Shown in pieces: positions 3,058-30,653 of a stretch of DNA of 32,000 nucleotides. The stretch is taken from positions 1,350,001 to 1,382,000 of the forward strand of contig CP001848.1 in NCBI GenBank assembly GCA_000025185.1, read 5' to 3'. The stretch comes from Pirellula staleyi DSM 6068. Lineage in GTDB: Bacteria > Planctomycetota > Planctomycetia > Pirellulales > Pirellulaceae. How positions within the stretch are numbered: position 1 is the first letter of the stretch; every line of letters starts with the position of its first letter. Both the position numbers and the translations under genes were made by a program. The notes below the pieces were generated by a model, which was given only the letters and a program-made list of their open reading frames with translations, was not told where the DNA came from and made no database searches.

Positions 3058-3089
3058 GAACCTTGGGTTTGTCGAATTAGGACGGTTGG

Positions 3090-4583
3090 ATGTCAACGAT
3101 GACGACTTGCATCTGTTCGTTTTGCGAGAAGGTAATCAATTTTCCACAAGAAATGCTTCGCAAGCGAGGAAAGTGTCCTCGATGTCAGCAGGTAGTTCTC
3201 CTTGTTGATAATCGTGAACAGTCTCTCGATTCAGAGTTGAGAACACTTTGGTACTATCGATGGAATCAACTTCTTTTGGGAATGCGAATGGTCGGACCCA
3301 TCGAAGATATCGATTTCCTGCGCCTTGTCCAAAGTGGCCAAATCACAAGCTCTGTGGAGGTAATGAGCCCCGAGCTTACGAAGGGACAGTGGGCCCCACT
3401 GTCTGCAATTAAGTTGTCGGTGATCGAGCAGAATGTCCAGCAGCGACTTGCTGAACAGTCCCGCATTCAGAGGAACTTTATCAAACGCCAACAGGCCGAT
3501 GCTGAGAATCGAGGAAAGTTGCAGCGTGCTATCCGCTCGGCGCTCGAGTCGGGTGGATTATCAACGAACCATCGAAAATCGATCGAGGAATTCGGACTCG
3601 CTGCCGGCATCCCAGCCCACGAGATCGCCAACTATATTGCGCAACAAAGTAATAGTTTGGTGCGAGAGGTTTTCGAAGACGCTTTGTCAGATGGTCTTCT
3701 CGATCAGGCCGAGGAGCAGAAGATTGGGCAACTTGCTGTCGCACTCGGTGTGACTTTGAGCTTTAACGCAGATGACAGACGTCGCATCGTTCTTTGCAAA
3801 CTGGCTCACCAGATTGACCATGGCTCATTCCAGCCCGCGACTGAGATTTTGGTTCCATTTAAACTAGCGGCCAAAGAAACAGCGTTGGCGAGCACGCAGG
3901 TAACATGGCATGAAATTGTTTCTCTGAAGAAACCACAAGGGATCCCGCTAGGGGGCGGCTTTTTCCTAAAGCATGGGGGAGCTGGTAATGCTTACCTAAC
4001 CACGAAGCAAGTTTCTATGGTTGGAGCCCTGCAGTCGCAAAAGCTCGGACTATCATCTGTTCAGAGGGCTACCAGATACGTAGACGGCGTATTTTTAAAT
4101 CGAAGCACTGGGAAGAGCATATTTCTGGAGTTCGACAGCCTCACGGAAGCAGGTGGGAGCTTCGCTTTGCTCCTGGAGTATGCTTGCAGTGGTGATCCTG
4201 TACTGGGATTTGATCCTACGCATCAATTTGTACCACAAGTTGTTGATGCCGAGTCAATCGATGTACCTGAGCCTAGCTTTAGTTTAGATTCACCAAGCTC
4301 AGAACCTAAATATACGTTTCGTGTCGTGGGTGATCATGTAGGTACTCGCTCGCACTTTATCCAGCAACTTCAAGTTGGTGATCCAGTCCTGCTTATTCGC
4401 GAACCCGATAATCCTTTTGATGCGTGTGCTGTAGCAGTCTACGATGCTCAACGACGGCAGTTAGGCTACTTAAAACGTGAAGTTGCTGAGTGGTTTACGC
4501 ATATTTTGTCGCGACAGCAAGTTACTTCGATGGTTCATGCATTTACCGCTGCAGGTTCGCTTGTCGTTGGTGTGTACTACTAG
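3090..4583 (+). CDS. Multidomain protein: N-terminal Zn-ribbon, GYF_2-like domain, helical repeats, PH-like middle region, C-terminal HIRAN domain
   Basis: CxxC...CxxC (CSFC...CPRC) at residues 8-32. GYF_2-like WYYRWN...GP...QWAPL (nt 3246-3413). C-terminal LQVGDPVLLIREPDNPFDACAVAVYDAQRRQLGYLKREVA matches the HIRAN signature (nt about 4308-4580). Sits 32 nt after comM on the same strand. Confidence 0.8.
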   Translation: MSTMTTCICSFCEKVINFPQEMLRKRGKCPRCQQVVLLVDNREQSLDSELRTLWYYRWNQLLLGMRMVGPIEDIDFLRLVQSGQITSSVEVMSPELTKGQWAPLSAIKLSVIEQNVQQRLAEQSRIQRNFIKRQQADAENRGKLQRAIRSALESGGLSTNHRKSIEEFGLAAGIPAHEIANYIAQQSNSLVREVFEDALSDGLLDQAEEQKIGQLAVALGVTLSFNADDRRRIVLCKLAHQIDHGSFQPATEILVPFKLAAKETALASTQVTWHEIVSLKKPQGIPLGGGFFLKHGGAGNAYLTTKQVSMVGALQSQKLGLSSVQRATRYVDGVFLNRSTGKSIFLEFDSLTEAGGSFALLLEYACSGDPVLGFDPTHQFVPQVVDAESIDVPEPSFSLDSPSSEPKYTFRVVGDHVGTRSHFIQQLQVGDPVLLIREPDNPFDACAVAVYDAQRRQLGYLKREVAEWFTHILSRQQVTSMVHAFTAAGSLVVGVYY

Positions 4584-5741: not shown

Positions 5742-6662
5742 ATGGACTGGCTCAACTACCACCATTTGCACTATTTTTGGGTCGTGGCGCGCGAGGGGAG
5801 CATTGTGCGGGCGTGCGAAGTGCTGCACTTATCACAGCCGACGATTTCGACGCAGCTGCAGCAGCTCGAGCAAAGTCTGGGTGGGAAATTGTTCGAGCGC
5901 GCGGGGCGTGGACTCAAGTTGACCGAGCTTGGGCAAACGGTTTTTACCTACGCCGACGAGATTTTTGCGCTCGGAAAACAGCTGCTCGATACGGCGAAAG
6001 GACGCCCGACGGGACAGCCGCTGCGATTGGTGGTGGGGGTTTCCGATGTGCTGGCGAAGCTAGTGGTTTACCGACTGCTGCAGCCGGCGCTCCGCATGCC
6101 CGAGCGGGTGTGCCTGATTTGTCGTGAGGGGAATACAGCGGAGCTGCTGACGAGTCTCGCGGCGTACGAGCTCGATCTGATGCTGAGCGACGCGCCGCTG
6201 GCGAGCGGCAGCCGCGTGAAGGCGTTTAGCCACTTGCTCGGCGAGTGTGGCATCACGATTTTCGGCAAACCGGCGCTCAAGAAAAAGTATGCGACCGACT
6301 TTCCTCGTTCGCTACATGGCGCGCCGATGCTCCTGCCGTTTTCCAGCACCAACACGCGCCGCTTGCTCGACCAGTGGTTCGACGACGCTGAGATCTCGCC
6401 GATGATCGAGGGGGAGTTCGAAGACTCCGCGCTGATGAAAGTCTTTGGCCAAGAGGGGCTCGGGCTCTTCCCCGCGCCAAGTGTGATCGAGAACGAACTG
6501 TGCGAGCAGTATGGTGTGCAGGTGGTGGGGCGAATCGATCAAGTCCGCGAACGTTTTTATGCCATCTCCGTCGAGCGGAAGCTGAAAAATCCAGCGGCTG
6601 TCGAGATCTCGCGTGCGGCGAGATCGCAGATTTTTGCTCCCAAAGCGGAGCCGCCTAAGTAG
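5742..6662 (+). CDS. nhaR: LysR-family transcriptional regulator, NhaR-like
   Basis: Collinear with E. coli NhaR as I recall it: LNYHHLHYFWVVAREGSIV, GKLFERAGRGLKLTELG, GEFEDSALMKVFG, YAISVERKLKNPAV. Winged-HTH N-terminus plus LysR substrate domain. Confidence 0.8.
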   Translation: MDWLNYHHLHYFWVVAREGSIVRACEVLHLSQPTISTQLQQLEQSLGGKLFERAGRGLKLTELGQTVFTYADEIFALGKQLLDTAKGRPTGQPLRLVVGVSDVLAKLVVYRLLQPALRMPERVCLICREGNTAELLTSLAAYELDLMLSDAPLASGSRVKAFSHLLGECGITIFGKPALKKKYATDFPRSLHGAPMLLPFSSTNTRRLLDQWFDDAEISPMIEGEFEDSALMKVFGQEGLGLFPAPSVIENELCEQYGVQVVGRIDQVRERFYAISVERKLKNPAAVEISRAARSQIFAPKAEPPK

Positions 6663-7137
6663 CCTCTGGTGAGGTCGCTTGCAGCGTCGCCAGGTCCGTG
6701 GCGAGAAGCTGCCGCTCGTCGGCCTTTTCGATCTCGTCGAGCAGCGCCGTCGCTTTCGCGCAAGCAGCTTCCGCCCGGTCGCGATCCTCTAGCAACCGGC
6801 ACGCTCGCGCCAGCGCTTCCAGGGCATAGCCCCTGTAGAACGGAGTCAGACTTTCGCTGATTTCTAGGCATTTTTCTGCATAATGGAGCGCTTTCGGTGG
6901 GTCGGAAGTCGACGCAAAGACGCGCGACATCAGCCAATATGCGACCGACATTTCTCGCGGCGAATAGTCGGGCCGCTGCATCCAGTGATAGAGCGATGCA
7001 TAGGCGCAGGCAATCATCTGCTCGTCGTCGGTGCCGCTGCGATGCGGTTTGTCGAGCCACTTCCAGGTCTCGTTGAAACAGGCGGCTGAGAAGTAGCGAT
7101 GCCCGCGTTCGACATCCAGTGGTGCCTCGCTGTTCAT
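6655..7137 (-). CDS. Hypothetical all-helical (TPR-like) protein, 160 aa
   Basis: ORF 6655..7176, with the ATG at 7137 (MNSEAPLD...) preferred over the upstream start. Helical repeat character. Lies 57 nt downstream of the kinase gene on the same strand. No family recognised. Confidence 0.55.
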   Translation of the reverse strand: MNSEAPLDVERGHRYFSAACFNETWKWLDKPHRSGTDDEQMIACAYASLYHWMQRPDYSPREMSVAYWLMSRVFASTSDPPKALHYAEKCLEISESLTPFYRGYALEALARACRLLEDRDRAEAACAKATALLDEIEKADERQLLATDLATLQATSPEAT

Positions 7138-7194
7138 GCCTGAAAACCTTAGGAGAAGAGGAAATCGCTGCAGCAAAACTTGGAGAGCGGCGCG

Positions 7195-10080
7195 CTACGA
7201 TTCACTACCGCCGAAGAAGAAGCCTAGGACCGCGATCGGAACCCCAATCGCCAGCGCGAGTGTTGCGGGTCCTCCTGGTAGTCCGAGATCGGGAAGGTAG
7301 AGTGCGCCGACGAGCATCACCGCTGCCGCTGGGATGGCGAAGAGGCTCATGCGCCAGCCGCCGAACATGCCGAGCACCATCAGCAGAAGTCCCGCGACCG
7401 CCGCGTTGTAGCTGCTGACCATGGGACCGATCAGTGGGATCGGCAGTGGCGTGGTGCTGCTGGTATCGGGGATTTGCATGCCGTTTTGTAGCGACGCCTT
7501 CACATCGGCGGGAGTTTTGTTAGCGATGTCGGAGGCAATCTGCTCGACGTTCGAAAAGAGTCCGTTTTGCTGGGCCCAGAGGGCAAATCCGAGCAGTAAA
7601 CAAGTGCCGAGGATGAATCGCACTTTGCCGCCGAACAGGAACGCCAGCGGCGAGAGGGCGGTGCTGGTGAGTTTTGAGCTGCGACCTTCGTAGGAACCTT
7701 GTCGGGCGGCGTGCAGCATCGCTTTGATGCGAGCCCGCTTTTTGATCGCTTCAGCCGCCGGATCGGCCACCGTTTGGGCCGAGGGCTGAACTGCAGCAGC
7801 GCGCACTTCGGCAGCTTCATCGACGAGCGCCTCGGCCATCCGCTTGGCTTGGCGTCGCGCTTGCAGTGGGTCGATCCCTTGGGCTTCAAGCCCTTTTTCT
7901 TCGACGATTTGCAGATGTTTTCGATCGCGCTCTTCCCGCAGGCGAGTGACGCGTCGGTCGATCCAGGCGATGAGGGGGTCGCGCCAGGCACGGAACTTGG
8001 AGCGGCGCTTTCCTTGCTCGGTGCGGCCGAAGCGCTCGCGGGCAGCGATTTTTGCTTCGTAACCAAAGAGGGACTCGAACAGCTCTTCCCACTGCTCACC
8101 GGAATAGCGGGCGACGAACTGGCGTAGCGAGTCTTCCTCGACCCCTTTCAAGCGAAAGCTTTTTAGCAAACCATGCAGTGGCGCCAGCGCCGCTTCGCGC
8201 TCTTGCGCAAGCGGGCGATCGATGGCGAAGTAGAGTGCGACGGCGAGTCCGACGGCTATCGGCAGCAGCACCATCCAAGTGATGAGCCAGCCGAGCAGCA
8301 TCAGCACCACAAGCGCAACGAGGCCACCTGCTCCCCAGGTGAGCCAGTCGCTGGTGCGTGTGGTGGAGAGCCAGAGACGAGCTTTATCGAACAAGAACGT
8401 ACGCTGCAGAAAGCCGCTGACTGCGAAGTAGACAAGCGCCGCCATCACCGGGACGAGCATCAATCCGAGCCCGAGATTCAGGCTCCAAAACGAAATGCCA
8501 AGTCCGAGCGCTGTGAAGCCAGCGGTGACCGAGAGGATGGCGAGCGAGCGAATCTTGGCAAACTTCGCTTCACCAAATTGCTTCACCGATTGCTCGAGCA
8601 AAGTGACCTGCTCTTCGCGCGGCGAGAAGGGTCCGGTCGATTGAATGCCGAGATAGGCCTCGAGGTCTTGTATCACTTCGGCTAGGCTCGGGTAGCGATC
8701 TTCAGGTCGCTTAGCGACCATCCGCACGACGATATCGGAGAGTCGCTTATCGAGTCGCTTGATGATCGCATCGGGGCGAACGATCGGTTCCGACTTGTGC
8801 TTGGTGATCACTTCATTGGCCGTTGCACCTTCAAACGGGGGGCGTCCGGTGAGCAGGACGTAGAGGGTACAGCCGAGCGAGTAGATATCGGCCCGATGAT
8901 CGACACCAGCGGCGTTAATCGCTTGTTCGGGGGCCATGTAGGCTGGCGTTCCCATGGCGACATTCACCATCGTGACATCGGTGCCGGTGAGGCTCCGCGC
9001 GGTGGCGGATTGACCGACGACGGTTCGCGCGCTCGATGATTTGGCGGCAGCATTCTCGGCCAGTTTTGCAGCGGCTGCAGCTTCGGCTTGCTCTTGTTCG
9101 AGCGCCACCTCTTGCTCGGCAGCTTGCGGCGTTTTCACGAGCCCCAGGTCGGCCACCTTCACGACACCGCGCTCGCTGAGAAGCAAATTGGCTGGCTTCA
9201 CATCGCGGTGAACCATTCCATGCTGATGCGCAAACTGCAAACCGCGAGCAGCCTGCAGCACGTAGCCAATCGCGACTTCGGCATCGAGATTCCCTTGCGA
9301 TTTGACGACGTGATCGAGCGAATCTCCCGGCACAAATTCCATGCTGAAGAAGTGCGAACCCGACGACGAACCGAGATCGTAAATCTGCACCACGTTGTGA
9401 TGCGACAGCTGCGCGGCGGCATAGGCTTCACGCGTGAAGCGGGCAATGAACGTTGGGTTGCTGGCCCACTGCGGCTGAATCACTTTCAGCGCGACGAGTC
9501 GATCAAGCGATAGCTGACGTGCTTTGTAAACTGCTCCCATCGCGCCACGTCCGAGTTCGCCTAGCAGCTCGTAGCCCGGAAGTTTTGTACCGGAGTTGAT
9601 GGGTTGCAGCGGTTGCTCGTGACGCGGGCTGGTGCTGCTGGCAACTGCGGCGGCGGTGTGGGCTTCGGTCGCTTCGATGGCGCGCTGAGGGCGCGTGAGG
9701 TTAGCGGCAAAGTCGGCTGTCGCGTTAGGATCGGCAAGCGGACTAGCGGTCGGCTGCGATGGGGGAAGCGTCGCCTCGACAGCTTGCGGAGATGAAGCGC
9801 GTGGCGGTGACGGAGGGGGAAGCGTGGCCTCGGCGGCGCGCGGCACGGACGGAGGTGACGATGGTTCTGCAACGGTCTTCGCGGCCGAAGTGGGTGGGAG
9901 CGTTTGCTCGACAGCGGCGGGCGGAGCGAGCTTGGCGGTGCTCCACGGTTTCGCGGGATCGTCGTGCACGCGCAGCGCGAACGACTGACCACACTTAGCG
10001 CATTTTGGCTTGTAGGTGCCAGGCTTCGCTTCGCGCACCGTCATGGAGTGGTTGCAGTGGGGGCAGGCGATGGCCGGCAT
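7195..10080 (-). CDS. Ser/Thr protein kinase with N-terminal Zn-ribbon, Pro-rich linker and polytopic membrane C-terminal half
   Basis: CPHC...CAKC Zn-ribbon. Hanks kinase motifs GELGRGAMGAVYKA, VALKV, HRDVKPANLLL (HRD at nt 9202-9210), DLG, GTPAYMAPE, DIYSLG. Several long hydrophobic segments in residues about 520-960. Confidence 0.9.
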   Translation of the reverse strand: MPAIACPHCNHSMTVREAKPGTYKPKCAKCGQSFALRVHDDPAKPWSTAKLAPPAAVEQTLPPTSAAKTVAEPSSPPSVPRAAEATLPPPSPPRASSPQAVEATLPPSQPTASPLADPNATADFAANLTRPQRAIEATEAHTAAAVASSTSPRHEQPLQPINSGTKLPGYELLGELGRGAMGAVYKARQLSLDRLVALKVIQPQWASNPTFIARFTREAYAAAQLSHHNVVQIYDLGSSSGSHFFSMEFVPGDSLDHVVKSQGNLDAEVAIGYVLQAARGLQFAHQHGMVHRDVKPANLLLSERGVVKVADLGLVKTPQAAEQEVALEQEQAEAAAAAKLAENAAAKSSSARTVVGQSATARSLTGTDVTMVNVAMGTPAYMAPEQAINAAGVDHRADIYSLGCTLYVLLTGRPPFEGATANEVITKHKSEPIVRPDAIIKRLDKRLSDIVVRMVAKRPEDRYPSLAEVIQDLEAYLGIQSTGPFSPREEQVTLLEQSVKQFGEAKFAKIRSLAILSVTAGFTALGLGISFWSLNLGLGLMLVPVMAALVYFAVSGFLQRTFLFDKARLWLSTTRTSDWLTWGAGGLVALVVLMLLGWLITWMVLLPIAVGLAVALYFAIDRPLAQEREAALAPLHGLLKSFRLKGVEEDSLRQFVARYSGEQWEELFESLFGYEAKIAARERFGRTEQGKRRSKFRAWRDPLIAWIDRRVTRLREERDRKHLQIVEEKGLEAQGIDPLQARRQAKRMAEALVDEAAEVRAAAVQPSAQTVADPAAEAIKKRARIKAMLHAARQGSYEGRSSKLTSTALSPLAFLFGGKVRFILGTCLLLGFALWAQQNGLFSNVEQIASDIANKTPADVKASLQNGMQIPDTSSTTPLPIPLIGPMVSSYNAAVAGLLLMVLGMFGGWRMSLFAIPAAAVMLVGALYLPDLGLPGGPATLALAIGVPIAVLGFFFGGSES

Positions 10081-10269
10081 TAAGACCTCGCAGAGGAAAG
10101 ACTCAAGGTGTGGTGGTCGCGCGAAGGAGCGGCTGAAGAAATCGAGACTTCGCTATCGTATTCTCGCGCACCAGTGCGGTGCAAATAACGCGCGATTATT
10201 TGCCATCGCAAGCTTCTCGCCAACAGCTGCGCATGCGTTGGGCCTGCGAAATACGGAGTCGATGCTGCT

Positions 10270-13161
10270 TTACGACGTCGATGGCGAACTTGTTGATGAA
10301 CTGGGAGGCGTGGCAGCGGCCGCGCTGCTGCCCGCCACTTTACCGACCACAAACTTCCCCTCGATCAGCCGCAATTCGCGCACTGGGCGTCCATAGAGGA
10401 GCTCGGTCATTTTCTGTTTCAGCGGGGTAAGTTGCTCATAGACTTCCACCGTTGCGCCGCTGGCGAGCAGTAGCAACAGCTTCTCGAGCGAGCAGTCGAG
10501 TGACAGATGTTTGAGTCCAAAACGTTCCGACAGCATCGTGACATCGGCCAGCAGCTGCGCCGCTTGAGGATGGTGATCTTCACTTCGATAGACAGCGGCT
10601 TGCGCCAGCTGCGCCGGGAGGATCATCTCGAGGAGCCCTGTTTTGCGCGCGAGTGTGCCGGCTTGCTGCACATGCTTGCGCGCCTCTTCGCGATAACGCC
10701 AATCTCCCGAATGAGCGCGGAGCGCGAGGTAGAGTCGTCCAAGAACAAAACGATAGCCAGCCGCGATGGCAAAATCGTGTGGCGCAACATCATCGATCTC
10801 GCGCCAGGCAGTTTTTTCGGCAAGCGGAAAATTACCCGAGTCGAAGACTGCTTCGACATGCCAGTGCTCGGCCCCCAAGAGATGCGACGACTCGCGCGGA
10901 ATCGACATCGCAAGCTTGTAGCGTTCGATCGCTTCGGCAAACTTCCCTTTCAGATGCAGCACGCGAGCTGTCAGCATCACGGCATCGCGAAACAGCTGCT
11001 TCTGTTTCGCCAGGTCGGGTAGCGCCACAAGTTCATTCACACGGCAGGTGGCATCTTTGACACGTCCTGCCAGCAGCAGTTGCTGTGCGAGTTCGATCAG
11101 CAGGTGCGGAACAAGTTCCAGGTTCCCCCCTTGCTCGTCGCTAGGTAACTTCGCGCGCTCGAGGTGACGCGTTGTCGTGGCAATCGCTTCCGAGAATCGT
11201 CCCGCGCTTCGCAGCGCATGCCGATGGAGCTGAGCAACGCGCCACTGATCGCTCGCCGATAGCCCAGCGCGAGGTAGCTGCGTGGTAGGGTCGATCAACA
11301 GCTCCAGGGCTCCCGCGCGATAACAAAAATCGCGCACCGTTTCGAGTTTCAAAACATCCTCCTGCTGCCAGAGTGCAGCGAGGAACGACTCGTGCCAGGC
11401 CGAGTGATAATCGCCTGCCTCAGTCCGGTGCTGCATCGCGCGGAGCAGCGTGGCGATACGTGGAGGAGTGATCGGCCCGTCGGACTTTTGGAGCTGAAGC
11501 TCTTCGGCTAGCCAGCGGTGGAGCTGTGCACCGCGAGAGGACTCCAGTGGTGCCTGACGACGCAAAAATGCCTCGCGCGCGACGCGCTGTAGCACCACGA
11601 GCTGCGTGGCCGGATGCGCGACGATTCCTGCCCCGCGCAGCTGCGCGAGAATCGCGCGGAGCTTTGTGCCGTCGAGCTGCACCAGCGTAGCACCCCACGG
11701 TTGCTGCTCAGCGGAAACATCGCTATTAGCCTGGAAATCCCGGCGTAAATGCCCGAGTAGGTTCTCGATCGTCGTGACTTCGAGCGGCTGATCGGCGCAT
11801 GCCAGTAGCGATAACAATTCGGTGATAGCGGGTTGATTCCAGGCCTCGAGCAGTTCCTGCAGCAGCCCATCGATTAGCTGGTCGAGCGGGATCGACGTCA
11901 GCCGCTGCGCGTGGCGTTTGAGCGTTGCCGGGAAACTGCCACGAGCCGCGCGGCACGCAGCGATCAAGCGCGCGGCGATGAAGTGACCCGACGCGGCGGC
12001 AGCAGCATCGTCGATTTCGCTACTCGTGACCGGGTAGCGCAGTTTTGCCAGCAGCTCGCGGCTGTCGGGCTTCGCAACGCGGTCGACCTGGATCGTCGAA
12101 AGGCCCTCCCCTTCCCACGGCGCAAGATCGGCCAAAGGCTGCTTGGAGATCACAATGCAGAGCCCATTGTGAGCGTGCAGCAATTTGCGGAGCAGCATTA
12201 AGAGCGCATCGTCGGCAATGCGCGCAGTCCCATGCTCGTCGGCGCGCAGCAAGTGGTCCAGACCATCGATCACTAGCAGGGTTCGTTCCTCTTGCAGTAG
12301 TCGCGCAAGACGTGCACCGGTTTCCCACCAAGCTTCGGGCGCGTCTTCGACATCGCTCAAAAATTGCCGGAGCGCGAAGCAGAACTCGTCGGCTGAATGA
12401 TGTCCCCCCGCGCGCTGCTGTTCGTCGAAAGACCAGCAAAACAGACGTTCCGCGCCGCGCCATGCTTCCCGACTGAGCAGTGCCAAAAAATGCGCGACGA
12501 GCGAGCTTTTCCCAACCCCCAACTCGCCGACGAGATTCACCACACGTGTGCCGGGCTCCATCCAAGCGACACCGAGTTGATGCAGCAGAATTTCTCGCTC
12601 GACCGATTCCGCTGCGACCAGTGCATGCCGAAAATTACCGAGCATCAGTTGCGATTCGGGAAGTGCACTCCACGCGAGTTCACTTGGCATTGCTCCGATA
12701 TGCACCAGGTGTCCCACCGCGCGGCGAGCGATGTAGGCCATGGCGCGATATGCCTCGCGCAGGTCGCGCTTCTCGAGTGGCTGCTGAAGTTCGCGCGACA
12801 CCTGCACCGTCACCGTCTCGGGCAACAGTCCCCAGGGACAATCCTTCAGAATGACTGGGAGAAATTCGGTATCGCCTGTTTGACCACGTGTCACTTTCAC
12901 GTTGGCCCGAATCACGAGTCGAGGGAGCGCTTCCTTCATCATCGCGCGCGATGCCAGAAAGTCGGGCGACACAAGCAGGATCGCGAGCCGTGCGCTCTCG
13001 ACCCCACGTAGTCCCTCGGCTGTCAGCCGCCCCGCTTCATCGGCGGTAGCGAGTCGCACATGCTCGCGCCCTAGTCCCAGGGCGAGCAAATGATTGGCAA
13101 TTAGCGTGGGCCATTTGGTGTCCCATTCATTCGAGCAGAGAAGAATTAGGGGATCGCTCAT
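10270..13161 (-). CDS. TIR-like domain / P-loop STAND NTPase / TPR-like helical repeat protein (963 aa)
   Basis: N-terminus LILLCSNEWD...ARLAILLVSPDFLASRAMMKEAL matches the TIR_2 pattern. Walker A GELGVGKS at nt 12505-12528. Walker B LLVIDGLD at nt 12256-12279. Long helical-repeat C-terminus. Confidence 0.8.
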   Translation of the reverse strand: MSDPLILLCSNEWDTKWPTLIANHLLALGLGREHVRLATADEAGRLTAEGLRGVESARLAILLVSPDFLASRAMMKEALPRLVIRANVKVTRGQTGDTEFLPVILKDCPWGLLPETVTVQVSRELQQPLEKRDLREAYRAMAYIARRAVGHLVHIGAMPSELAWSALPESQLMLGNFRHALVAAESVEREILLHQLGVAWMEPGTRVVNLVGELGVGKSSLVAHFLALLSREAWRGAERLFCWSFDEQQRAGGHHSADEFCFALRQFLSDVEDAPEAWWETGARLARLLQEERTLLVIDGLDHLLRADEHGTARIADDALLMLLRKLLHAHNGLCIVISKQPLADLAPWEGEGLSTIQVDRVAKPDSRELLAKLRYPVTSSEIDDAAAAASGHFIAARLIAACRAARGSFPATLKRHAQRLTSIPLDQLIDGLLQELLEAWNQPAITELLSLLACADQPLEVTTIENLLGHLRRDFQANSDVSAEQQPWGATLVQLDGTKLRAILAQLRGAGIVAHPATQLVVLQRVAREAFLRRQAPLESSRGAQLHRWLAEELQLQKSDGPITPPRIATLLRAMQHRTEAGDYHSAWHESFLAALWQQEDVLKLETVRDFCYRAGALELLIDPTTQLPRAGLSASDQWRVAQLHRHALRSAGRFSEAIATTTRHLERAKLPSDEQGGNLELVPHLLIELAQQLLLAGRVKDATCRVNELVALPDLAKQKQLFRDAVMLTARVLHLKGKFAEAIERYKLAMSIPRESSHLLGAEHWHVEAVFDSGNFPLAEKTAWREIDDVAPHDFAIAAGYRFVLGRLYLALRAHSGDWRYREEARKHVQQAGTLARKTGLLEMILPAQLAQAAVYRSEDHHPQAAQLLADVTMLSERFGLKHLSLDCSLEKLLLLLASGATVEVYEQLTPLKQKMTELLYGRPVRELRLIEGKFVVGKVAGSSAAAATPPSSSTSSPSTS

Positions 13162-13360
13162 GAACCATCTCCCTTAGCGAGATTGATGGTTCTAGCAAGC
13201 TTTCGTAAAGAGCCGGTGAAGGTTTGGCGACGGTCGCTCGCGAAGCAGAGTGCGCAGAGGACGATTCACACCACAGCTGCATGCAGCTAGAGGCCCGCAC
13301 GCTTTTTCTGTAGAAGCGGATGCTTAGTCAATTTCCGCTTGGAAGACTTGTTGCCGCGCG

Positions 13361-15517
13361 CTAGTTTTGAAGGAAATCGGGAAGGTAGCCCCCCGATTCG
13401 GTAGCAGGCGACTGCTTGCGCTTCGCCGCTTGCTCCGCTTCCCGCAGCGCCAGGTAAGAGCCCTGCATCAGCCGATCTTCGCGCCCTTCACCCGCTTGCA
13501 CCACGATGGCCGACTCGCTGAGGAGTTTCTTCTCGGCGACATTGATGGCATAGCAACGTGTTTGGCAAAGTCCACAGCCGACGCACTTGTCAGCTACGAC
13601 GCTGGGAGCCAAAAATCCGCTCGATTCAATCGGCTCGCCTTGGGCATCGACTTGTGTACCAACTCGCACAAACTCAATTGCGTGATAGCCGGCCGCGATG
13701 CAATCGTCGACGCACAGCTGACAGGCTTCCTTACCCGCGTGCGGCAGGCAGGTTTGCAAATCGACAATCGCGAGCCCCATTCGCGCGACACGTTTTTCCT
13801 CGAGCGGAATCGCGCGAATCGCACCTGTCGGACAAACCTGACCGCAGGCATTGCAGCTCGATTCGCACCCGGCCCAATCGGGCTTGGCGGCCGGTGTCCA
13901 CAACCCTTCCAGCCCTTGCTCGAATCCGAGCGGCTGTAAAACATTGTTCGGGCATGCCTTAAAACATTCGCCACAGCGAATGCACAGGTCGAGGAACTGC
14001 GGCTCGGGTACACTTCCCGGTGGTCGAATGGGAAGCAGCTGAGGATCGCTCGTCAGATCAGCTCCCAGCACTTTCGTGGCGATGGTGAGCGATGTGGCCC
14101 CCACAATCGTGGCGGCTGAACCAGCAGCGAGCGACAAAAATCCGCGGCGTCCGAGTGCCGTTTCGTGCGTCGGTGGATCGTTCTCCACTTTCAGCTGAAT
14201 CAAGTTCCAGCGCTCGACAAACTTGATCGCTTCGGTCGGACAAACCCCAGCGCAGGTCTGGCACAGCGTGCAGTCGGTGGTTCGCGTGGTGAAGTCGGGC
14301 TTGATCGCATCGAACGGACAAATTTGCACACACTTGTTGCAGTGGATACAGCTCGATTCGACCTTCCGCTCCGTAGCGCGAAACAGATTCGATACCGAGA
14401 AGACCGCCCCACTCGGACAGACATACTTGCACCAAAACCGAGGCCGCAGAAAACCGAGCCCCAGCACGACAGCAAACATCGCCAGCGAAAGAAAATGCCC
14501 CGCCGAAGGTGCCGGCACATTGTGCCAGCCGCGCGAGGCTGCAGTTTGCAGCGGCTCGAACAGGAACAGCATCCCGCGCGTGATGACCGGAATCGCCGCA
14601 AAATAGCCACTCACCAAAACGCCGAACACCGAGCAGAGGAGCGTTCCCGCGAGCAGGTAGTACTTGATATGCACCCACCAACCATCCTCGGCGACTCGAA
14701 AGCGCTTGACGCGCTTACCGATCCCCCAGTCGAACAGATCGATCAGGGTCCCGAGCGGGCAGAGATAGCCGCAGAAACCTCGCGGAACGAGGATCGCAAC
14801 CACTAAGATTCCGATTGCCGAGACGAGCGACCAAACCCAAGTCCGACCGGCAATAGCGGTCGAGATCGCCACCAAAGGATCGATCACCAGCAGACTCTCG
14901 GCATGCAGCAACTCTTTCGAAGCGAGCGAGTCGGCATAGTGCGACGGCCAGGCATCAGGGGCCGTTTCCGAAAGGGTCCAGGGTCCTCCGGGATCAAACT
15001 GCAGTTCCTCGAGTTTCTCCGCCGGAAAATCAGGTTCGGCAGCGAGCACGAGCGACTCGTTTTGCACCTCGCGCACTGTGACCGGACCTAGCAGCGCAAG
15101 CTTTCCCGTCGCGGGATCGGCGCTCGATACAAAGTACCGCTGCAAGGGCCGAATCCCGACGAGCGCGCCAGGCTGGGCGGTGATCGCGATCGTCTGGTCC
15201 TCGGCAGGAGCAGCGGGCGCAAGGCCGGGCCAAACCTGCGCCGGACGCGCCGAGTAGGGCCACGCAACGTAGAAGAAAAGGAACAGAAACAGCAGAAAGA
15301 AAACTGTTTGCACCACACGGCGCACCGGCGCGGAGAGCCAACTCGGACCGAGTCGCTTCAGCCACTGCCGCACCAGCCCCGGTTTGGCTGTCGCACGATC
15401 GGAAAACAGAGCCGCCGGCAGGATCTGCTTAGCGATGCGCACTAGCAGTGTGTCGGGCTTGAGCTCGGTCCCCTTCTTCGGTTTTCGCAAGAAGGGGAGA
15501 AACATATCGAGTCGCAT
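13361..15517 (-). CDS. Membrane polyferredoxin, NapH-like (CX3CP x2 + 2 [4Fe-4S]) fused to a NapG-like poly-[4Fe-4S] module
   Basis: FCGYLCP (nt 14756-14773) and FWCKYVCP (nt 14414-14431) CX3CP motifs within TM helices. CIHCNKCVQICP, CTLCQTCAGVCP. Internal twin-arginine-like RRGFLSLAAGSAATIVGA (nt 14078-14152). Then CIRCGECFKACP, CNACGQVCP, CQLCVDDC, CVGCGLCQTRC. Confidence 0.85.
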   Translation of the reverse strand: MRLDMFLPFLRKPKKGTELKPDTLLVRIAKQILPAALFSDRATAKPGLVRQWLKRLGPSWLSAPVRRVVQTVFFLLFLFLFFYVAWPYSARPAQVWPGLAPAAPAEDQTIAITAQPGALVGIRPLQRYFVSSADPATGKLALLGPVTVREVQNESLVLAAEPDFPAEKLEELQFDPGGPWTLSETAPDAWPSHYADSLASKELLHAESLLVIDPLVAISTAIAGRTWVWSLVSAIGILVVAILVPRGFCGYLCPLGTLIDLFDWGIGKRVKRFRVAEDGWWVHIKYYLLAGTLLCSVFGVLVSGYFAAIPVITRGMLFLFEPLQTAASRGWHNVPAPSAGHFLSLAMFAVVLGLGFLRPRFWCKYVCPSGAVFSVSNLFRATERKVESSCIHCNKCVQICPFDAIKPDFTTRTTDCTLCQTCAGVCPTEAIKFVERWNLIQLKVENDPPTHETALGRRGFLSLAAGSAATIVGATSLTIATKVLGADLTSDPQLLPIRPPGSVPEPQFLDLCIRCGECFKACPNNVLQPLGFEQGLEGLWTPAAKPDWAGCESSCNACGQVCPTGAIRAIPLEEKRVARMGLAIVDLQTCLPHAGKEACQLCVDDCIAAGYHAIEFVRVGTQVDAQGEPIESSGFLAPSVVADKCVGCGLCQTRCYAINVAEKKLLSESAIVVQAGEGREDRLMQGSYLALREAEQAAKRKQSPATESGGYLPDFLQN

Positions 15518-15523
15518 AGAATG

Positions 15524-16831
15524 CTACTTTCCACCGGCAGCGTTGCTGCCCGATGCGAGAGCCTTGGCCGTGGCGTTGATGATCGCCTGACTCGTAATCG
15601 TAGCATTGCTCGTGGCATCCACCCCCTTCACCCCTTGCCGTGCTTGGATCTTTTGGGGCGTGTCGGTCAGAGCGGAATAGAACTGCTTCTCGCGATGCTG
15701 AATCACCGAAAGGGCCGTGATCTTGCCACCTTTCACGGTCAGCGAAATGCGCACGGGACCTTCGTAGCCAATCGACTCTTCTTCGTACGTTCCATCGGCC
15801 ACTTTCGTCGCGTCGGCGAGATCGAACAACTTCACCGCCTCGATGCCGCGCTGGGCCCGCTCTTGGCTCCGCTTCAGCCGACCGTTAGGTGGGTTGGCTT
15901 GTTTGATCGCTAACACTTTTTGATACCACTCGAGCGATGCTTGCGGATTACCAGCCTGACGATAACCGTCGGCGACGTAGAGATAGGCTTCGTCGGCACC
16001 GCTACCAACATTAGCGGCAAACAGCTTCGTAAACTGCACCGCTTTGGCAATATCTCCCATGTCGGCCCAGAGCTTAATGTGGGCCGTCGAGATCGTCTTT
16101 TGCTTACTCATCAGTTCGACTGCCATCGCTTTATTTCCCAAATGGAAATAACACTCGGCAAGCTTGGCGATTAGCGAGGGAGGTCCATTCCGCTCGACTC
16201 CCGCTTGTCGCCACCAGTAAGCAGCACGGGCATAGTCTTGATGCAAGTTATGGTACATGCGCCCCAAATCAAGCATCGCGCGTGTCCGTTTGGCAGGATC
16301 ACTTTGATGCGTCAGCAGCAGGTGGTGCATCAGCTTCACCCCTTCTTGCCACTTATTAGGGTTGGGATTAATCACGTCCCAAACATACTGCCCTACATTT
16401 TTTTGATTGTTCCAGCCTCCCGGAGGCTTATCGGGCCAGCTCAGATCGAGCGATTCGGGCCAGTCGGTCGAGGCGTTATCAAACCAGTCGGGAGGCTGAC
16501 GACCAAGGTCGCTAATCATTTTTTCAACCTCCGCCTTCGTCCGGCGGACTACCATTCCCGCTGCTGGTTCGGCGGCAGCTTCCCGCTCGTTGATCACATA
16601 CCGTTTGCCATTGATGGTGACGGTGTGAATGGTGCTGAGGTCATAAGTTTTGGTGATCGTCTTTCCCGCTTGGGTCTCCTCGACTTTGATGGTCGAGCTA
16701 TCTTTGGAAAGAACTTTGGCCTCGAGCTTCTGGCCGTCGAGAAACACGATCTCGGCCGCGCTCAGCGGAATCGATAAAGCCAGGCATAGTGCCATGGTCA
16801 CGAGGGGCGTAAATGATTTTCTAGCAATCAT
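15524..16831 (-). CDS. Secreted TPR-like protein with C-terminal FMN-binding (FMN_bind) domain
   Basis: Start moved to the ATG at 16831 (MIARKSFTPLVTMALCLALSIPLSAAEIV is a signal peptide); the upstream 69 codons overlap apbE. The C-terminal FMN_bind region carries the flavinylation-type motif DATSNAT (Thr codon at 15599-15601). The ATG overlaps the apbE stop (ATGA at 16828-16831). Confidence 0.85.
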   Translation of the reverse strand: MIARKSFTPLVTMALCLALSIPLSAAEIVFLDGQKLEAKVLSKDSSTIKVEETQAGKTITKTYDLSTIHTVTINGKRYVINEREAAAEPAAGMVVRRTKAEVEKMISDLGRQPPDWFDNASTDWPESLDLSWPDKPPGGWNNQKNVGQYVWDVINPNPNKWQEGVKLMHHLLLTHQSDPAKRTRAMLDLGRMYHNLHQDYARAAYWWRQAGVERNGPPSLIAKLAECYFHLGNKAMAVELMSKQKTISTAHIKLWADMGDIAKAVQFTKLFAANVGSGADEAYLYVADGYRQAGNPQASLEWYQKVLAIKQANPPNGRLKRSQERAQRGIEAVKLFDLADATKVADGTYEEESIGYEGPVRISLTVKGGKITALSVIQHREKQFYSALTDTPQKIQARQGVKGVDATSNATITSQAIINATAKALASGSNAAGGK

Positions 16832-17877
16832 GAGCGCACCTCGCTGATCAAAGGAAATCCGGGGGTGGCGAGCGTGGTGCCATCGCGCAGCGTGAAGTAG
16901 GCATCGATTCCGGGGCGACTGGCGAGGAGCTTCATGCTGCGGACGGGACCAAGCACAAAGCAGGCGGTTGACCACGCGTCGGCAAGCGTGCAATCGGGTG
17001 CTGCCACCGAGCAACTCGTTACGATTTGCGGCGAGCAACCGGTGTGAGGATCGAGCAGGTGATGATCGGTCGAGTGGGGAGAGAAGCGGGTGGCATAGTC
17101 CCCGGATGTCGAGAGGGATCGCCCCTGCAGTTCCACGAGCATCGGTGCCCCGCTCATCAGCGGATTAGCGATTCCAACTTGCCAATCTTGGGAGTCGGTT
17201 TTAGTGCCCAGCGGTCGAATTTCCCCGGCATCAATCAAGGCATGCTCAATTCCCCATTCTTTTAAGGTCTCGAATGCCTGGTCAGTTGCATAGCCTTGAG
17301 CAATTCCATTGAAAGTTATTTGCATCCCAGGATCTTGAAACGTAATGCAGTCGCTTTGAATATTGATTTTGCGGTAATCAACAAGTTGGCGAGCCGTTTG
17401 AAGATCGCTCGGACCTGTAGTTTGAAGATGGTGTTTGGCAGCGTAGTAGTTCCAGAGTGGCTGAACGCTGATATCAAACGCCCCTTGGGTGGTTGAAGAG
17501 ACGGCGTGAGATTGCTGGAGAATGTCGACCAGCATCGCCGAGGGGGTATCGAGCTTCCCCACTCGGTTGAGCCGCGAAATTTCGCTATCGGGGCGATAGA
17601 TGCTCAGCGACTGCTCGACACGCTCGATGGTGGCAAAAGCTGCGTCGATCGCGGCTGTGGCGTACTGCGAATCGTCGTGAATCACGCCGATGGCGACTTT
17701 GGAGCCGAGTGCGTGGGAGGTTTTGCGGTGGAGTCGCGAGTGGTTGGCATGCGGCTCGCGTGGCTGTCCACTGAGTGACCAAGTTGCCAGAGACGAGGTT
17801 GCCAGCGAACTGGCTATGACGGCGCCGAGCCCGATCGATCCGAGCAGGAGCTTGCGCCGTGAAAGTGTGGGTTGCAT
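16828..17877 (-). CDS. apbE: ApbE-family FAD:protein FMN transferase with Tat-type signal
   Basis: Start set at the ATG at 17877 (MQPTLSRRKLLLGSIGLGAVIASS, twin-arginine signal). ApbE motifs SIYRPDSEISRLN, FDISVQPLWNYY, FNGIAQGYATDQA, GDYATRF...HHLLDPHTG. Confidence 0.9.
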   Translation of the reverse strand: MQPTLSRRKLLLGSIGLGAVIASSLATSSLATWSLSGQPREPHANHSRLHRKTSHALGSKVAIGVIHDDSQYATAAIDAAFATIERVEQSLSIYRPDSEISRLNRVGKLDTPSAMLVDILQQSHAVSSTTQGAFDISVQPLWNYYAAKHHLQTTGPSDLQTARQLVDYRKINIQSDCITFQDPGMQITFNGIAQGYATDQAFETLKEWGIEHALIDAGEIRPLGTKTDSQDWQVGIANPLMSGAPMLVELQGRSLSTSGDYATRFSPHSTDHHLLDPHTGCSPQIVTSCSVAAPDCTLADAWSTACFVLGPVRSMKLLASRPGIDAYFTLRDGTTLATPGFPLISEVRS

Positions 17878-18469
17878 CAGCCGCCTCGAAGGAGTGTTGC
17901 TCGCGAGTGAATTTGCCCCTGGTGAATCGCCAGGCGCGAGCTTGGGTGATGGGGCGAATTCTAGCGAGCGGGAGTCGCGCGCTGCAACGAAAAAACCAGC
18001 GGCTGAGAAATCGATGCACCAGAAAAACGACTTTAGTAGTTCTACTTTAGTAGTCGTAGTGGTTCGTTGAGACTCTGTCTCACTGATGCCGCGTTGTGGG
18101 AGCCTCGACAGCAGTCGCTTGCACCGGCGATTAGCGACCGCTCGATCCCGGCCATGATCGAAAAAAGGGCGGAAGTTTTCCTGGCTCTGCCTGAGGGGGT
18201 TAAGAGCCCAGGAAATGCGGTGCGGCTGGTGCGGTAACACTTGGGGTGTGCTGACCGTTTGTGGCAGTGAGCGAGACATGGTTTACGGTTAATGGCGTGG
18301 ATGTGGACCCTCTGGGGGCAAAGGTAGTTAGGGTGTGGGTGCAGTATGCGGTAGATGCGGGTAGTCGTATCGCCTGAAAAGGCGCTATCTATCCCACAAA
18401 GGGATGGTTTAGTTGCTTGACGGTGTTCGAACCGCTGATTATTCTCCCCCCCTGCACCACTCTGTACTT

Positions 18470-20767
18470 ATGGGGGATATTGCCGTGCCTCCCGCGCCGT
18501 CCAGGATTACGATTCGACAGCTGATTTCCGCCATGGAATCTGGGTCCCCTCTTGCGCCGCATGCTGTGCTGGGGGTGACTGAAGGTGAGACCTTGCCGGC
18601 GGTGATAGAGCAGGCGTATCGGCTGCGTGTGAGTGAGCTGGCGGGTGTGCGAAGCGAGCTTGGTGAGTCGCGTGTAGGCAAAGTGATGCGCGCGATTTCA
18701 GCCGCTAAGGTTCAGCTCACTTCGGCGCCTGGCTCAGCAGCCGCGGCGGTCGGTTTGCCAGTCAGGGGGGCGGCTCCAAGTGCTGCGCCGCTGCCAGAAC
18801 GCTCGTTTGCGTTGGGAGCTCCGCAAGGTCCTTCTCCACTGGGTAAGCCTGCTCTCTCCTCGGCTGTATCCTCGTCGCCGGAACACTCGTCGCCACTCGA
18901 TACGCTGCGGTTCAGTCCGTTGATGCTGGCGTTTGGGGGTGGTGCTGCGGTCGGTGTCGTCGTGCTGCTGCTGGTTGTGGTGGTGTGGTCGCTGAGTGGT
19001 TCGAAATCGCGCACGCCTGTAGCTGATGCAAACGCTGCGAGTAGCTTGCCGAGCCCCCTGTTTCCCAGTGTTCCGAGTTTGCCTCCTCCTCCGCCGCCCG
19101 TAGTCCCAGAGTTGCCCGTAGTCCCAGAGTTGCCCGTAGTCCCAGAGTTGCCCGTAGTCCCAGAGTTGCCTGTAGTCCCAGAGTTGCCTGTAGTCCCAGA
19201 GTTGAGTCAGCCGCCACCTCCGCAGCCAGCAGTGCCGGATGTGAGTGTGCCGGATGTAAGCACGCCACCACCTTCCGCTTCTTCGCCTGCGGTGAAATTG
19301 CCTCCCCCCCGACCAGCGTTCGGCTTTGGGGGTGGAGGTAGTCTCCCTTCCGACAGCGGCGCGGATGATACGGCAGGCGGTTTCTTTCCGTCGAGCCGTC
19401 CCGCTGGCTCAGAGCCAAAATCCGTTCCGAGTGCTGCCTCGCCCGGCAGCTTTTCGGGGGCTCCCTTTGGTGGTCAGCCTGCGACTCCTGTCGCAGGATC
19501 GTCCCGTCCCGCACTACCAGCCACCTCGAACGGTCCACCCGAGCGTTCGCTCTCCGATTTACTACCGGGTGGAAAGAGTAGTGAGTCAGGAACAGGAACA
19601 TCGAGCGCGAAGTCTCCCGCTGCTGTCGATTACAGCCCCACGCTGCAGTTGCCTCCGACAGGGAAGTCCGAACCGGTTCAACTCTTGGCCGGTGACTTTG
19701 CGAAGAGTGATTTAACGATCGATGGCTCGGCCGCCGAGTTAGATGGCAACTTGGTGTTTGCGATATCGAAGATCGCTGGCTCAGCGCCGCCGAGTTGGCG
19801 CATCGAAACCGTTCCTGGAGCTCCGCCCGTTGCAGCCAGCGGGGCTGATCGAGCCAAAGCAGCAGCGCCGTCGGTTTTCGCGCGGCCCGAATCGACAGGA
19901 CCGACGACCGTAGCGATATGCACGCTCGAATCGCGAGGCATTACGTTTCAGTGGGAGCCCCAAGTGGCGGCAACCACCGCTGGGCAACTCACGAACTGTT
20001 TGATCTATGTCACGACCGATCAGAAGTCGACGGTCTACTCGCTCCGGTCATACATCAATGCGTCGCGTGTTCCGCTCGACCTGTCGAAGTCGCCGCAGCG
20101 GATCGTAGTCCCTCTCGAGCATCTTCCGAAATCAGAACGGATCCGGCTCGAAGTGAGGCCGAAATCAGGTTTCGTCTCCACGCTGGAGATCGAGCCACCG
20201 GAAGGGAAAGTGGGAGTGAATCGTCGTCTGCGGATCGTTCCCAAGGCGGAGTACAACGTCGAGTTTCAGTTTGATTTGAGTTTACTTTCGGGCGAATTGA
20301 ATTTGTTTCATCGTCCATTCTTCTCGCTCGGCAATTCGCAGCGACAAGAGTTCACCACTGAGAAGCTCGAGAGCCTGGTCGCATCGACAAGTCTGAAGAT
20401 TCGTCGCGATATCGACCGCCACGATGAGCTGAAGCGAAGGTTGGGAGCGATTGGCGACGAGATCTCGCAGGCCAACTCGGCACGTGTCACGACGGCGCAG
20501 CGCAATGCGGTGCTGTCGCGTTTATTGCAAGAGCGCAAGTCTTCGATCAGCGGGATCGAGCGTCTCAGCCGATCGATTCCCACCACCCAAGAGGCGCTCG
20601 AGGCACTCGAGAACTACGCCAAGCTGGCCGAGCGACTTCACCTTGTGACGGAGGTGGAGGTGCGCATCACTGCCCTTGGGGAACATGGCGAGATTCCACT
20701 TTGGCTCGGCACGATGCCGGTAACGGTCGCACCCGAAGCGAGTGCCCCACGGAGGTCGGCATCGTAG
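18470..20767 (+). CDS. Hypothetical single-pass membrane protein: small N-terminal cytoplasmic domain, TM, long Pro-rich repeat linker, beta-rich ectodomain, coiled coil
   Basis: ATG at 18470 preferred (MGDIAVPP...). TM LMLAFGGGAAVGVVVLLLVVVVWSL. Six VVPELP repeats. C-terminal half has alternating beta-like pattern, then a heptad-rich segment. No family recognised. Confidence 0.7.
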   Translation: MGDIAVPPAPSRITIRQLISAMESGSPLAPHAVLGVTEGETLPAVIEQAYRLRVSELAGVRSELGESRVGKVMRAISAAKVQLTSAPGSAAAAVGLPVRGAAPSAAPLPERSFALGAPQGPSPLGKPALSSAVSSSPEHSSPLDTLRFSPLMLAFGGGAAVGVVVLLLVVVVWSLSGSKSRTPVADANAASSLPSPLFPSVPSLPPPPPPVVPELPVVPELPVVPELPVVPELPVVPELPVVPELSQPPPPQPAVPDVSVPDVSTPPPSASSPAVKLPPPRPAFGFGGGGSLPSDSGADDTAGGFFPSSRPAGSEPKSVPSAASPGSFSGAPFGGQPATPVAGSSRPALPATSNGPPERSLSDLLPGGKSSESGTGTSSAKSPAAVDYSPTLQLPPTGKSEPVQLLAGDFAKSDLTIDGSAAELDGNLVFAISKIAGSAPPSWRIETVPGAPPVAASGADRAKAAAPSVFARPESTGPTTVAICTLESRGITFQWEPQVAATTAGQLTNCLIYVTTDQKSTVYSLRSYINASRVPLDLSKSPQRIVVPLEHLPKSERIRLEVRPKSGFVSTLEIEPPEGKVGVNRRLRIVPKAEYNVEFQFDLSLLSGELNLFHRPFFSLGNSQRQEFTTEKLESLVASTSLKIRRDIDRHDELKRRLGAIGDEISQANSARVTTAQRNAVLSRLLQERKSSISGIERLSRSIPTTQEALEALENYAKLAERLHLVTEVEVRITALGEHGEIPLWLGTMPVTVAPEASAPRRSAS
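19100..19207 (+). repeat. In-frame 18-bp tandem repeat x6 (gtagtcccagagttgccc; encodes VVPELP), followed by a 15-bp x2 repeat at 19232-19261 (VPDVS)
   Basis: Units at 19100, 19118, 19136 (identical), 19154 and 19172 (c to t at the last base) and 19190 (degenerate end). Read directly from the sequence. Confidence 0.95.
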
Positions 20768-20773
20768 CGCGGG

Positions 20774-21505: not shown

Positions 21506-21706
21506 CCATCATTATATGATTAGTAGTAAGTATCGATTTGAGATGCGTGAAGCAATGTTTGTGACTAATACCTAAATAAAAAATAACAATAGATTGAAGC
21601 TGCGGAGTGCATTGAGATCAAACTTATATCGCGTTCCTACGATACTCCCCACCGAATCTTCTGCCTGCACTAGCCCACCACCAACTTCCTGCAATAGCGA
21701 CCCACC
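21506..21706 (+). promoter_or_regulatory. AT-rich intergenic region, probable promoter for the GTPase sub-operon
   Basis: The 21506-21640 stretch is far more AT-rich (by eye about 30 % GC) than the about 62 % GC flanks and contains an aaataaaaaataacaa A-tract. It lies directly upstream of 21710. No sigma-factor motif is assigned. Confidence 0.35.
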
Positions 21707-21709
21707 GTG

Positions 21710-23002: not shown

Positions 23003-23058
23003 AAGGCGCTACTCACTGACGGTTGTACTTCATTGAATGTTCGGGAGAGGCTTGTTGT

Positions 23059-25593: not shown

Positions 25594-25664
25594 CCGTGAC
25601 GTTTGCGATGTGGTGGATGTCACAGGTCACGTAAGATTCAAGTAAATTTGTTAGTGAGTTGGTT

Positions 25665-29667: not shown

Positions 29668-29747
29668 AAACCAACGCTGGCGCTTCAGTTGCTCATGATA
29701 ATATTTATTAATATACATTCTATCGCATCATATTAGGCAGGTGGATT
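29668..29747 (+). promoter_or_regulatory. AT-rich spacer, possible internal promoter for the MotA/ExbB-like sub-operon
   Basis: catgataatatttattaatatacattctatcgcatcatattagg is strongly AT-rich against GC-rich flanks. It is followed by aggcaggtgg and GTG at 29748. Confidence 0.3.
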
Positions 29748-30638: not shown

Positions 30639-30653
30639 CGAAAGGATCGTGCG

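Follow-up and report, generated by a model that had tools for sequence, protein, structure and literature searches.

Introduction

Bacterial genes that encode a TIR domain, a STAND NTPase and a C-terminal array of tetratricopeptide repeats (TPRs) in one reading frame raise the question of whether this layout alone tells us what the protein does. Here, we ask this question for the protein P0001 of Pirellula staleyi DSM 6068, whose gene is located on the reverse strand at positions 10270 to 13161 of a 32,000-nucleotide stretch of DNA (GenBank assembly GCA_000025185.1, contig CP001848.1, positions 1,350,001 to 1,382,000). This stretch is referred to as the window, and all coordinates given below are window coordinates. 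A first-pass annotation made from the letters alone had described P0001 as a candidate immune sensor of the Avs-like antiphage type with an NAD+-cleaving (NADase) TIR domain. P0001 is a rare bacterial relative of the plant and animal NLR receptors, with a TIR-like domain, a NACHT-type switch and a helical-repeat sensor, and TIR-bearing STAND or NLR-like proteins as a kind are well known. To our knowledge, the bacterial TIR domains studied to date are enzymes that consume NAD+ or make signals, and TIRs of the scaffold type are regarded as eukaryotic.

In this study, profile searches, alignments, structure models and genome comparisons were combined to examine P0001, its relatives and its genomic context. 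Alignments of the small clade to which P0001 belongs show that it has replaced the glutamate and the pocket residues of its TIR family, yet keeps the TIR-like domain as the part best conserved between orthologues. We regard it as moderately likely that P0001 is a stand-alone NLR-like switch whose TIR-derived domain serves as a module without enzymatic activity.

The N-terminal domain of P0001

The gene is an intact open reading frame (ORF) of 963 codons starting with ATG, and the start is almost unambiguous, the stop-to-stop frame comprising 967 aa and the encoded protein 963 aa. The three-part organization into a TIR-like domain, a P-loop STAND NTPase and a TPR-like part, as read by the first-pass annotation, is supported by profile, fold and Pfam evidence.

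The TIR-derived domain covers residues 1–175 (12637–13161, reverse strand). With the Pfam model TIR_2 (PF13676) it remains below the gathering cut-off of 28 bits, scoring 15.1 bits when the whole protein is searched and 19 bits when the N-terminal domain is searched alone. In the P0001 clade, only the basal member P0128 passes this cut-off (29.7 bits), and for P0004, P0126, P0275 and P0127 no TIR_2 match was obtained at an E-value of 0.1 or better. For a family-specific hidden Markov model (HMM), 19 TIR_2-positive domains from relatives were used, and the query was excluded. This model scored residues 1–174 of P0001 at 52 bits (E 6e-15), and the best of 2000 shuffled sequences reached 7.3 bits. 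The AlphaFold2 (AF2) model of the domain has a mean predicted local distance difference test score (pLDDT) of 83.7, and its top Foldseek matches are all TIRs, with E-values down to 5e-4. Comparison against all representatives with VIA-align also returned TIRs in the first 15 rows (Z 14.6 to 10.6). The ESM Atlas provides its own model of the domain, independent of our alignment, which reaches template modelling (TM) scores of 0.67–0.71 to ten TIR_2 clusters. By profile and by predicted fold, residues 1–175 are thus a true TIR homologue with the TIR (flavodoxin-like) fold. The TIR_2 pattern read from the sequence in the first-pass annotation therefore holds as homology, but not as a match above the Pfam cut-off.

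Loss of the family glutamate and of pocket residues

In 94 TIR domains of STAND relatives from outside the P0001 clade, strand beta-C is followed by the motif S-x-[FY]-x-x-x-x-E-[VIL]-P. The Glu is present in 88/94 (94%), the aromatic residue F/Y in 86/94 and the Pro in 72/94; in a second alignment, the Glu column is occupied by Glu in 39 of 43 sequences. The corresponding segment of P0001, S71-R-A-M-M-K-E77-A78-L-P80, aligns without gaps on both sides. Here, the family Glu column falls on Ala78 in P0001 and likewise in its orthologue P0004, and the family aromatic column 73 is Ala in P0001. The codons for Glu77 and Ala78 are found at 12928–12933 (reverse strand). Column 77 is variable among the relatives, with Glu in 54% and otherwise V, Q, K, R, H, T or N. 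Within the clade, columns 77 and 78 read E-A in P0001 and P0004, A-V in P0126, D-V in P0275 and P0129, H-V in P0127, and S-L in P0128, and the subsequent [LI]-P is kept in all members except P0128. Since no Glu is conserved in the clade at either column, Glu77 is not a conserved catalytic residue. The first-pass annotation had located the glutamate of NADase TIRs in the segment LLVSPDFLAS...KEAL and had made its proposal depend on the alignment of this residue. Both the segment and Glu77 exist, but Glu77 stands one residue early with respect to the family Glu column, and the alignment did not bear the assignment out.

The changes are not confined to this position. P0001 and P0004 retain 10 of 25 family-conserved TIR columns; family members retain a median of 23 and none fewer than 11. 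The motif FISYSH has become LLCSNE in P0001, and the Trp and the Asp of strand beta-B as well as the Trp of the BB loop are lost; Gly44 of the BB loop is retained. In AbTir, the exchange E208A leads to an inactive protein, and W204, which belongs to the WxxxE motif, and residues of the BB loop also matter (bioRxiv 10.1101/2022.05.07.491051). The output of P0001 is therefore probably not canonical NAD+ cleavage, as far as this can be read from the alignments.

The relatives themselves deviate from the classical pattern. In the TIR-STAND-TPR family (loci L004–L083, proteins P0130–P0273), the conserved Glu is found five residues after the aromatic residue, whereas WxxxE has a distance of four. 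In the main family, the Glu thus seems to be shifted by one residue towards the C-terminus relative to the classical register, which suggests a family-specific register of helix alpha-C. A Glu-Glu doublet resembling E130/E131 of the plant TIR-NBARC-TPR protein ZmTNP-IIa occurs in 46 of the 94 family TIR domains. One family locus, L040 on a contig of an uncultured member of the Acidobacteriota, has an open frame of 1246 aa with two matches to the TIR HMM (residues 111–176 and 304–475), which may represent two TIRs in tandem; alternatively, the stop-to-stop frame may run through a separate TIR gene located upstream.

Relatives and distribution

The closest relative, P0004, is an orthologue with 57% identity known from Logan assemblies. 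An exhaustive search of representatives added P0126 (43%), P0127 (31%), P0128 (31%) and a cluster of P0129 and P0275, which is about 42% identical over the full length, and a metagenome scan yielded two further fragments of the clade, L108 and L109. In total, 2327 proteins are related to P0001 at an E-value of 1e-3 or better, 55 of them at 1e-30 or better. In a tree of the nucleotide-binding domain (NBD), the six close sequences group together (support 86), five of them with a support of 95, and the clade is placed on a long branch of its own, weakly beside the TIR-type relatives. Fusions of STAND relatives to a Ser/Thr kinase exist as well. The idea that P0001 might be the split form of such kinase-NACHT-TPR fusions ('Rosetta-stone') was dropped, as the tree showed no affinity of P0001 to the kinase-fused STANDs.

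The wider TIR-STAND-TPR family has the same length as P0001 and aligns with it over residues 1 to ~930 at 23–27% identity. It is spread over Acidobacteriota, Chloroflexota, Bacteroidota, Desulfobacter, a Heliomicrobium and archaea of the Methanosarcinales. Loci L004–L027 (Acidobacteriota, Chloroflexota, Heliomicrobium, Methanosarcinales, Desulfobacter) encode proteins that share with P0001 not only domain order and length, but also the motif GAExVxxWSF after Walker A and the motif LLVxDGh[DE]. In contrast to the P0001 clade, the TIR_2 domain of these proteins is canonical (up to E 7e-35), with FISYSHKD, WxDR, G..W and Glu-[VIL]-Pro, all of which have been lost in the clade. Judged by these comparisons, the P0001 clade is a small and sporadic one that descended from a widespread bacterial and archaeal TIR-STAND-TPR family.

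Searches of 40 genomes from the same family and order did not reveal an orthologue of P0001. The same was true of 400 genomes sampled from the phylum, whose best match (100 bits) covered only the NBD. Therefore, the gene is accessory and not part of a universally conserved core, in agreement with the assumption of the first-pass annotation. In the genome of P. staleyi itself, P0001 is the only NACHT match above the cut-off; a second copy of its TIR-like or sensor part is not present, and no further TIR_2 domain is detectable.

Conservation differs strongly along the protein. Between P0001 and P0004, identity amounts to 74% in the TIR-like part, 56% in the NBD, 42% in the helical and winged-helix part and 63% at the C-terminus. 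The TIR-like part is also 50–54% identical to those of P0126 and P0275. As far as could be found, a clade-wide, constrained and Glu-less TIR in a bacterial NLR-like protein has not been described.

The STAND module and the C-terminal repeats

The NBD comprises residues 186–360 (12082–12606, reverse strand) and is supported by Pfam and structural matches. The Pfam model NACHT (PF05729) matches residues 206–342 with 41.9 bits at a cut-off of 26.7, which was also passed by all five clade relatives scanned. Walker A GELGVGKS (residues 212–219; 12505–12528) agrees with the pattern GxxxxGK[ST], and Walker B LLVIDGLD (residues 295–302; 12256–12279) provides the Asp within LLVID; both lie where the first-pass annotation had them. 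All clade members keep G215, G217, K218 and D299. The motif D[GAS]hDE after Walker B was quoted by Kibby et al. as a NACHT signature (bioRxiv 10.1101/2022.07.19.500537). P0001 has DGLDH, with His instead of the second acidic residue, and the relatives mostly have D-G-L-E-P. The module is named NACHT-like here because this signature is incomplete.

An AF2 model of residues 176–620 is confident for the NBD only (pLDDT ~85–92). Its best Foldseek match is MalT (8bob, E 4e-8), followed by Apaf-1, ORC/Cdc6, the STAND-TPR protein 6mfv, NOD2, NLRP3 and the plant TNLs RPP1 and Roq1. MalT resembles P0001 in its NBD and winged-helix region and in MalT-like TPRs, which are found in the family (1hz4; TPR_MalT in P0128), but it differs from P0001 in having an output domain that binds DNA and in lacking a TIR.

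The NBD is followed by the helical and winged-helix STAND domains (residues 361–600; 11362–12081), which are the least conserved part, and by the TPR/MalT-like repeats (residues 601–940; 10342–11361), the presumed sensor, in which 13% of the columns are clade-invariant. The ~550 aa of helical repeats described in the first-pass annotation thus break up into ~240 aa of STAND domains and ~340 aa of TPR-like repeats. The C-terminal third of P0001 itself gave only TPR matches below the Pfam threshold. The family profile for this region matches the TPRs of LGN/Pins and MalT (1hz4), and the clade member P0128 matches TPR_MalT; the C-terminus of P0001 is accordingly classified as TPR/MalT-like. The protein ends with a tail rich in Ser, Thr, Pro and Ala (residues 941–963; 10273–10341) that is absent from P0004; these ~20 residues are a candidate target for phosphorylation.

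Several STAND positions have drifted in P0001. The sensor-1 Arg is replaced by Lys340 and the Pro of the GxP motif by Phe. The MHD-like His has probably been lost as well, with Gln523 in its place in two alignments, but the position is ambiguous, as one alignment instead offers an 'AHP' at about residue 516. Together with the exchange of the TIR Glu for Ala78, these alterations would be expected if P0001 were a decaying, functionless relic of a TIR-STAND defence gene. We consider this highly improbable, given a reading frame that runs uninterrupted through all 963 codons, relatives that cover the full length at identities of 57%, 43%, 42%, 30% and 29% and leave 96 columns invariant, Walker motifs that are invariant in the clade, and a TIR-like domain that is the most similar part of the two orthologues.

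Proposed mode of action

Combining these results, we propose that binding of a ligand by the TPR array would release P0001 from autoinhibition. The released protein would then oligomerize in a nucleotide-dependent manner, as STAND proteins generally do, whereby the N-terminal domains would come to lie next to one another. Given the degenerate NAD+-cleaving site, these clustered domains would most likely serve as a non-enzymatic surface for assembly or for binding an adaptor. The TIRs of RRS1 (in the RRS1/RPS4 pair), TLRs, MyD88 and MAL work by assembly and not by catalysis. These non-enzymatic TIRs share the fold predicted for the N-terminal domain of P0001, with VIA-align Z-scores of 14.6 for a chain of the RPS4/RRS1 TIR pair, 13.0 for MAL and 11.7 for MyD88. 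They differ from P0001 in that they are eukaryotic and have other TIR proteins as partners, for which the P. staleyi genome offers no detectable second TIR. The trigger could be a phage protein or a cellular signal, and an immune role of P0001 is possible. The protein would act on its own, since the clade loci L108 and L109 have unrelated neighbors; a putative membrane Ser/Thr kinase encoded next to P0001 is a weak candidate for a partner.

Several observations weigh against a non-enzymatic role. HMMER places the catalytic Glu of plant TIRs, TLRs and Cat1 at column 77, and the relatives P0019, L040 and L022, which have canonical TIRs, carry Glu at this column too. Glu77 is found at the canonical spacing from Ser71 and could, judged from this spacing, rescue some activity in P0001 and P0004. 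Furthermore, P0001 is divergent as a whole, with 66 of 133 conserved columns of the NBD and winged-helix region kept, and part of the decay of the TIR is therefore general drift. Finally, no adaptor partner was found.

Comparison with defence systems

If Glu77 were functional, P0001 could be a canonical antiviral STAND protein like Avs or bNACHT, in which recognition of a phage protein by the TPR array and subsequent oligomerization would turn the TIR into an active NADase or signal synthase and lead to abortive infection. Avs (PMC13581612) and bNACHT proteins (bioRxiv 10.1101/2022.07.19.500537) combine an effector-type domain, a STAND NTPase and a TPR-like sensor in one gene, as P0001 does, including forms with a TIR. 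The accessory nature and patchy distribution of the gene, the Ser+6 position of Glu77 and the retained Gly44 would also fit. PADLOC assigned P0001 to no system, and no Avs/AVAST model matched at an E-value of 1 or better in its database, which dates from 2023 and does not cover newer Avs families (up to Avs21). The only PADLOC match of P0001 was a weak one to the TIR-like protein ThsB (E 3.4e-4), which may be counted in favor of a TIR effector. The ten neighboring genes gave only weak matches at the domain level, namely of a HIRAN domain to PDC-M03B and of the kinase domain to PD-T4-6, and by PADLOC no recognizable defence island was found among them. Any Ser/Thr kinase domain would presumably match the PD-T4-6 models. 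Of the Avs-like character seen by the first-pass annotation, the effector-NTPase-sensor layout is shared, but neither an Avs match nor a nearby defence island came to light.

P0001 differs from Avs and bNACHT proteins further in its DGLDH signature and in an effector domain that lacks the catalytic residue; inactive effector domains have been mentioned among bacterial NACHT architectures (bioRxiv 10.1101/2022.07.19.500537). The exchange of Glu77 for A, D, H or S in the clade, Ala78 in the family Glu column, Ala73 as the aromatic column four positions before Glu77 and the loss of FISYSH speak against catalysis, and the sensor is better conserved than the helical and winged-helix domains. Altogether, a canonical TIR effector in P0001 appears distinctly unlikely.

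A further counterpart is the plant protein ZmTNP-IIa, which has the same order of TIR, STAND and TPR parts as P0001 (PMC9806590). It has two adjacent Glu residues, as have 46/94 of the bacterial relatives, and P0001 has Glu-Ala at this site. In ZmTNP-IIa, exchange of either Glu for Ala abolishes cell death, which thus requires both residues and also depends on the P-loop (PMC9806590). Its likeness to P0001 is one of architecture and motif.

Genomic neighborhood and the adjacent kinase

Downstream of P0001 on the same strand, and separated by 189 nt (10270-10080-1), lies the gene of the Ser/Thr kinase P0002 (7195–10080, reverse strand). P0002 combines a Zn-ribbon with a Pkinase domain (E 3.5e-48), and its long C-terminal half is hydrophobic and, judged by eye, resembles several transmembrane segments. 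The kinase gene is followed by that of a small protein of 173 aa with a TPR_12 domain (6655–7176, reverse strand). This confirms the order of a membrane kinase and a small protein given in the first-pass annotation as to gap, Pkinase and TPR_12, the membrane half being read by eye. Upstream of P0001, an operon for ApbE, an FMN_bind/TPR protein and a polyferredoxin occupies 13361–18279 (reverse strand). This block is kept in the nearest relative (G004) with identities of 73%, 58% and 48% (Fer4 73%). Synteny with G004 stops exactly at the downstream edge of the operon, where the STAND gene begins, and beyond this edge the G004 sequence is unrelated.

This arrangement allows a different reading, in which the STAND protein and the membrane kinase, perhaps together with the small TPR protein, form a non-immune cellular module with regulation or phosphorylation between them. 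As to its output, such a kinase-coupled module overlaps the non-enzymatic role favored here. Apart from the shared strand and the short gap, it is supported by the sister organism, in which orthologues of P0001 (57%) and of the kinase (77%) were each found on Logan contigs of 58,213 and 59,209 nt; judged by the identical contig sizes alone, the two orthologues very likely share these contigs. It would also agree with the many STAND relatives fused to a Ser/Thr kinase, with the Ser/Thr-rich tail of P0001, and with a recent (2026) survey in which non-defence STAND clades were interspersed with defence clades (PMC13581612). However, nine of 40 related genomes encode orthologues of the non-catalytic half of the kinase, and all nine lack a STAND orthologue. 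Three of these nine loci were examined and have unrelated contexts, including a PLD gene with a pseudouridine synthase gene and a TetR gene with a NUDIX gene. In the metagenome fragment L109, a convergent, lipoprotein-like ORF on the opposite strand is found downstream in place of a kinase; L108 has a divergent ZIP transporter gene upstream. The NBD tree did not connect the clade with kinase-fused STANDs, and the Ser/Thr-rich tail is missing from P0004. In a scan of 6400–13600 for promoters and terminators, the counts were within chance, and this includes a promoter-like site in the gap between P0001 and the kinase. Taken together, we regard the kinase-coupled module as unlikely.

The kinase orthologue of G004 (L105 12971–15750, G004:C1) is split over two overlapping frames of 374 aa and 579 aa, either by a frameshift or by an assembly error.

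Other parts of the window contain genes of separate interest. At 1435–4583 (forward strand), the gene of a ComM/YifB-like Mg-chelatase ATPase precedes one for a protein of 497 aa with a C-terminal HIRAN domain, which is the domain that matches the PADLOC candidate family PDC-M03B (E 3e-8). A cluster at 18413–31999 (forward strand) comprises DO-GTPase2 (26.4 bits, cut-off 27), GAP1-N2/GAP1-M, an ORF of 989 aa for which no Pfam match was obtained, tandem GYF_2 domains and MotA/ExbB, and resembles a GTPase-centric system of the GAP1 type.

Conclusions

P0001 indicates that a TIR-STAND-TPR layout by itself does not warrant the label of an NADase defence gene. By analogy with MyD88 and IRAK, one may go further and speculate that a bacterial NLR lineage has turned a TIR enzyme into a structural adaptor whose pseudo-TIRs recruit or activate the neighboring kinase in P. 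staleyi and its sister organism. We consider this a long shot; if true, the lineage would be an independent bacterial counterpart of the scaffold signaling of the animal TLR/MyD88 type. If the N-terminal domain of P0001 is functional, bacteria too would use TIRs non-enzymatically, and P0001 would provide a simple system for learning what a scaffold-type TIR binds.

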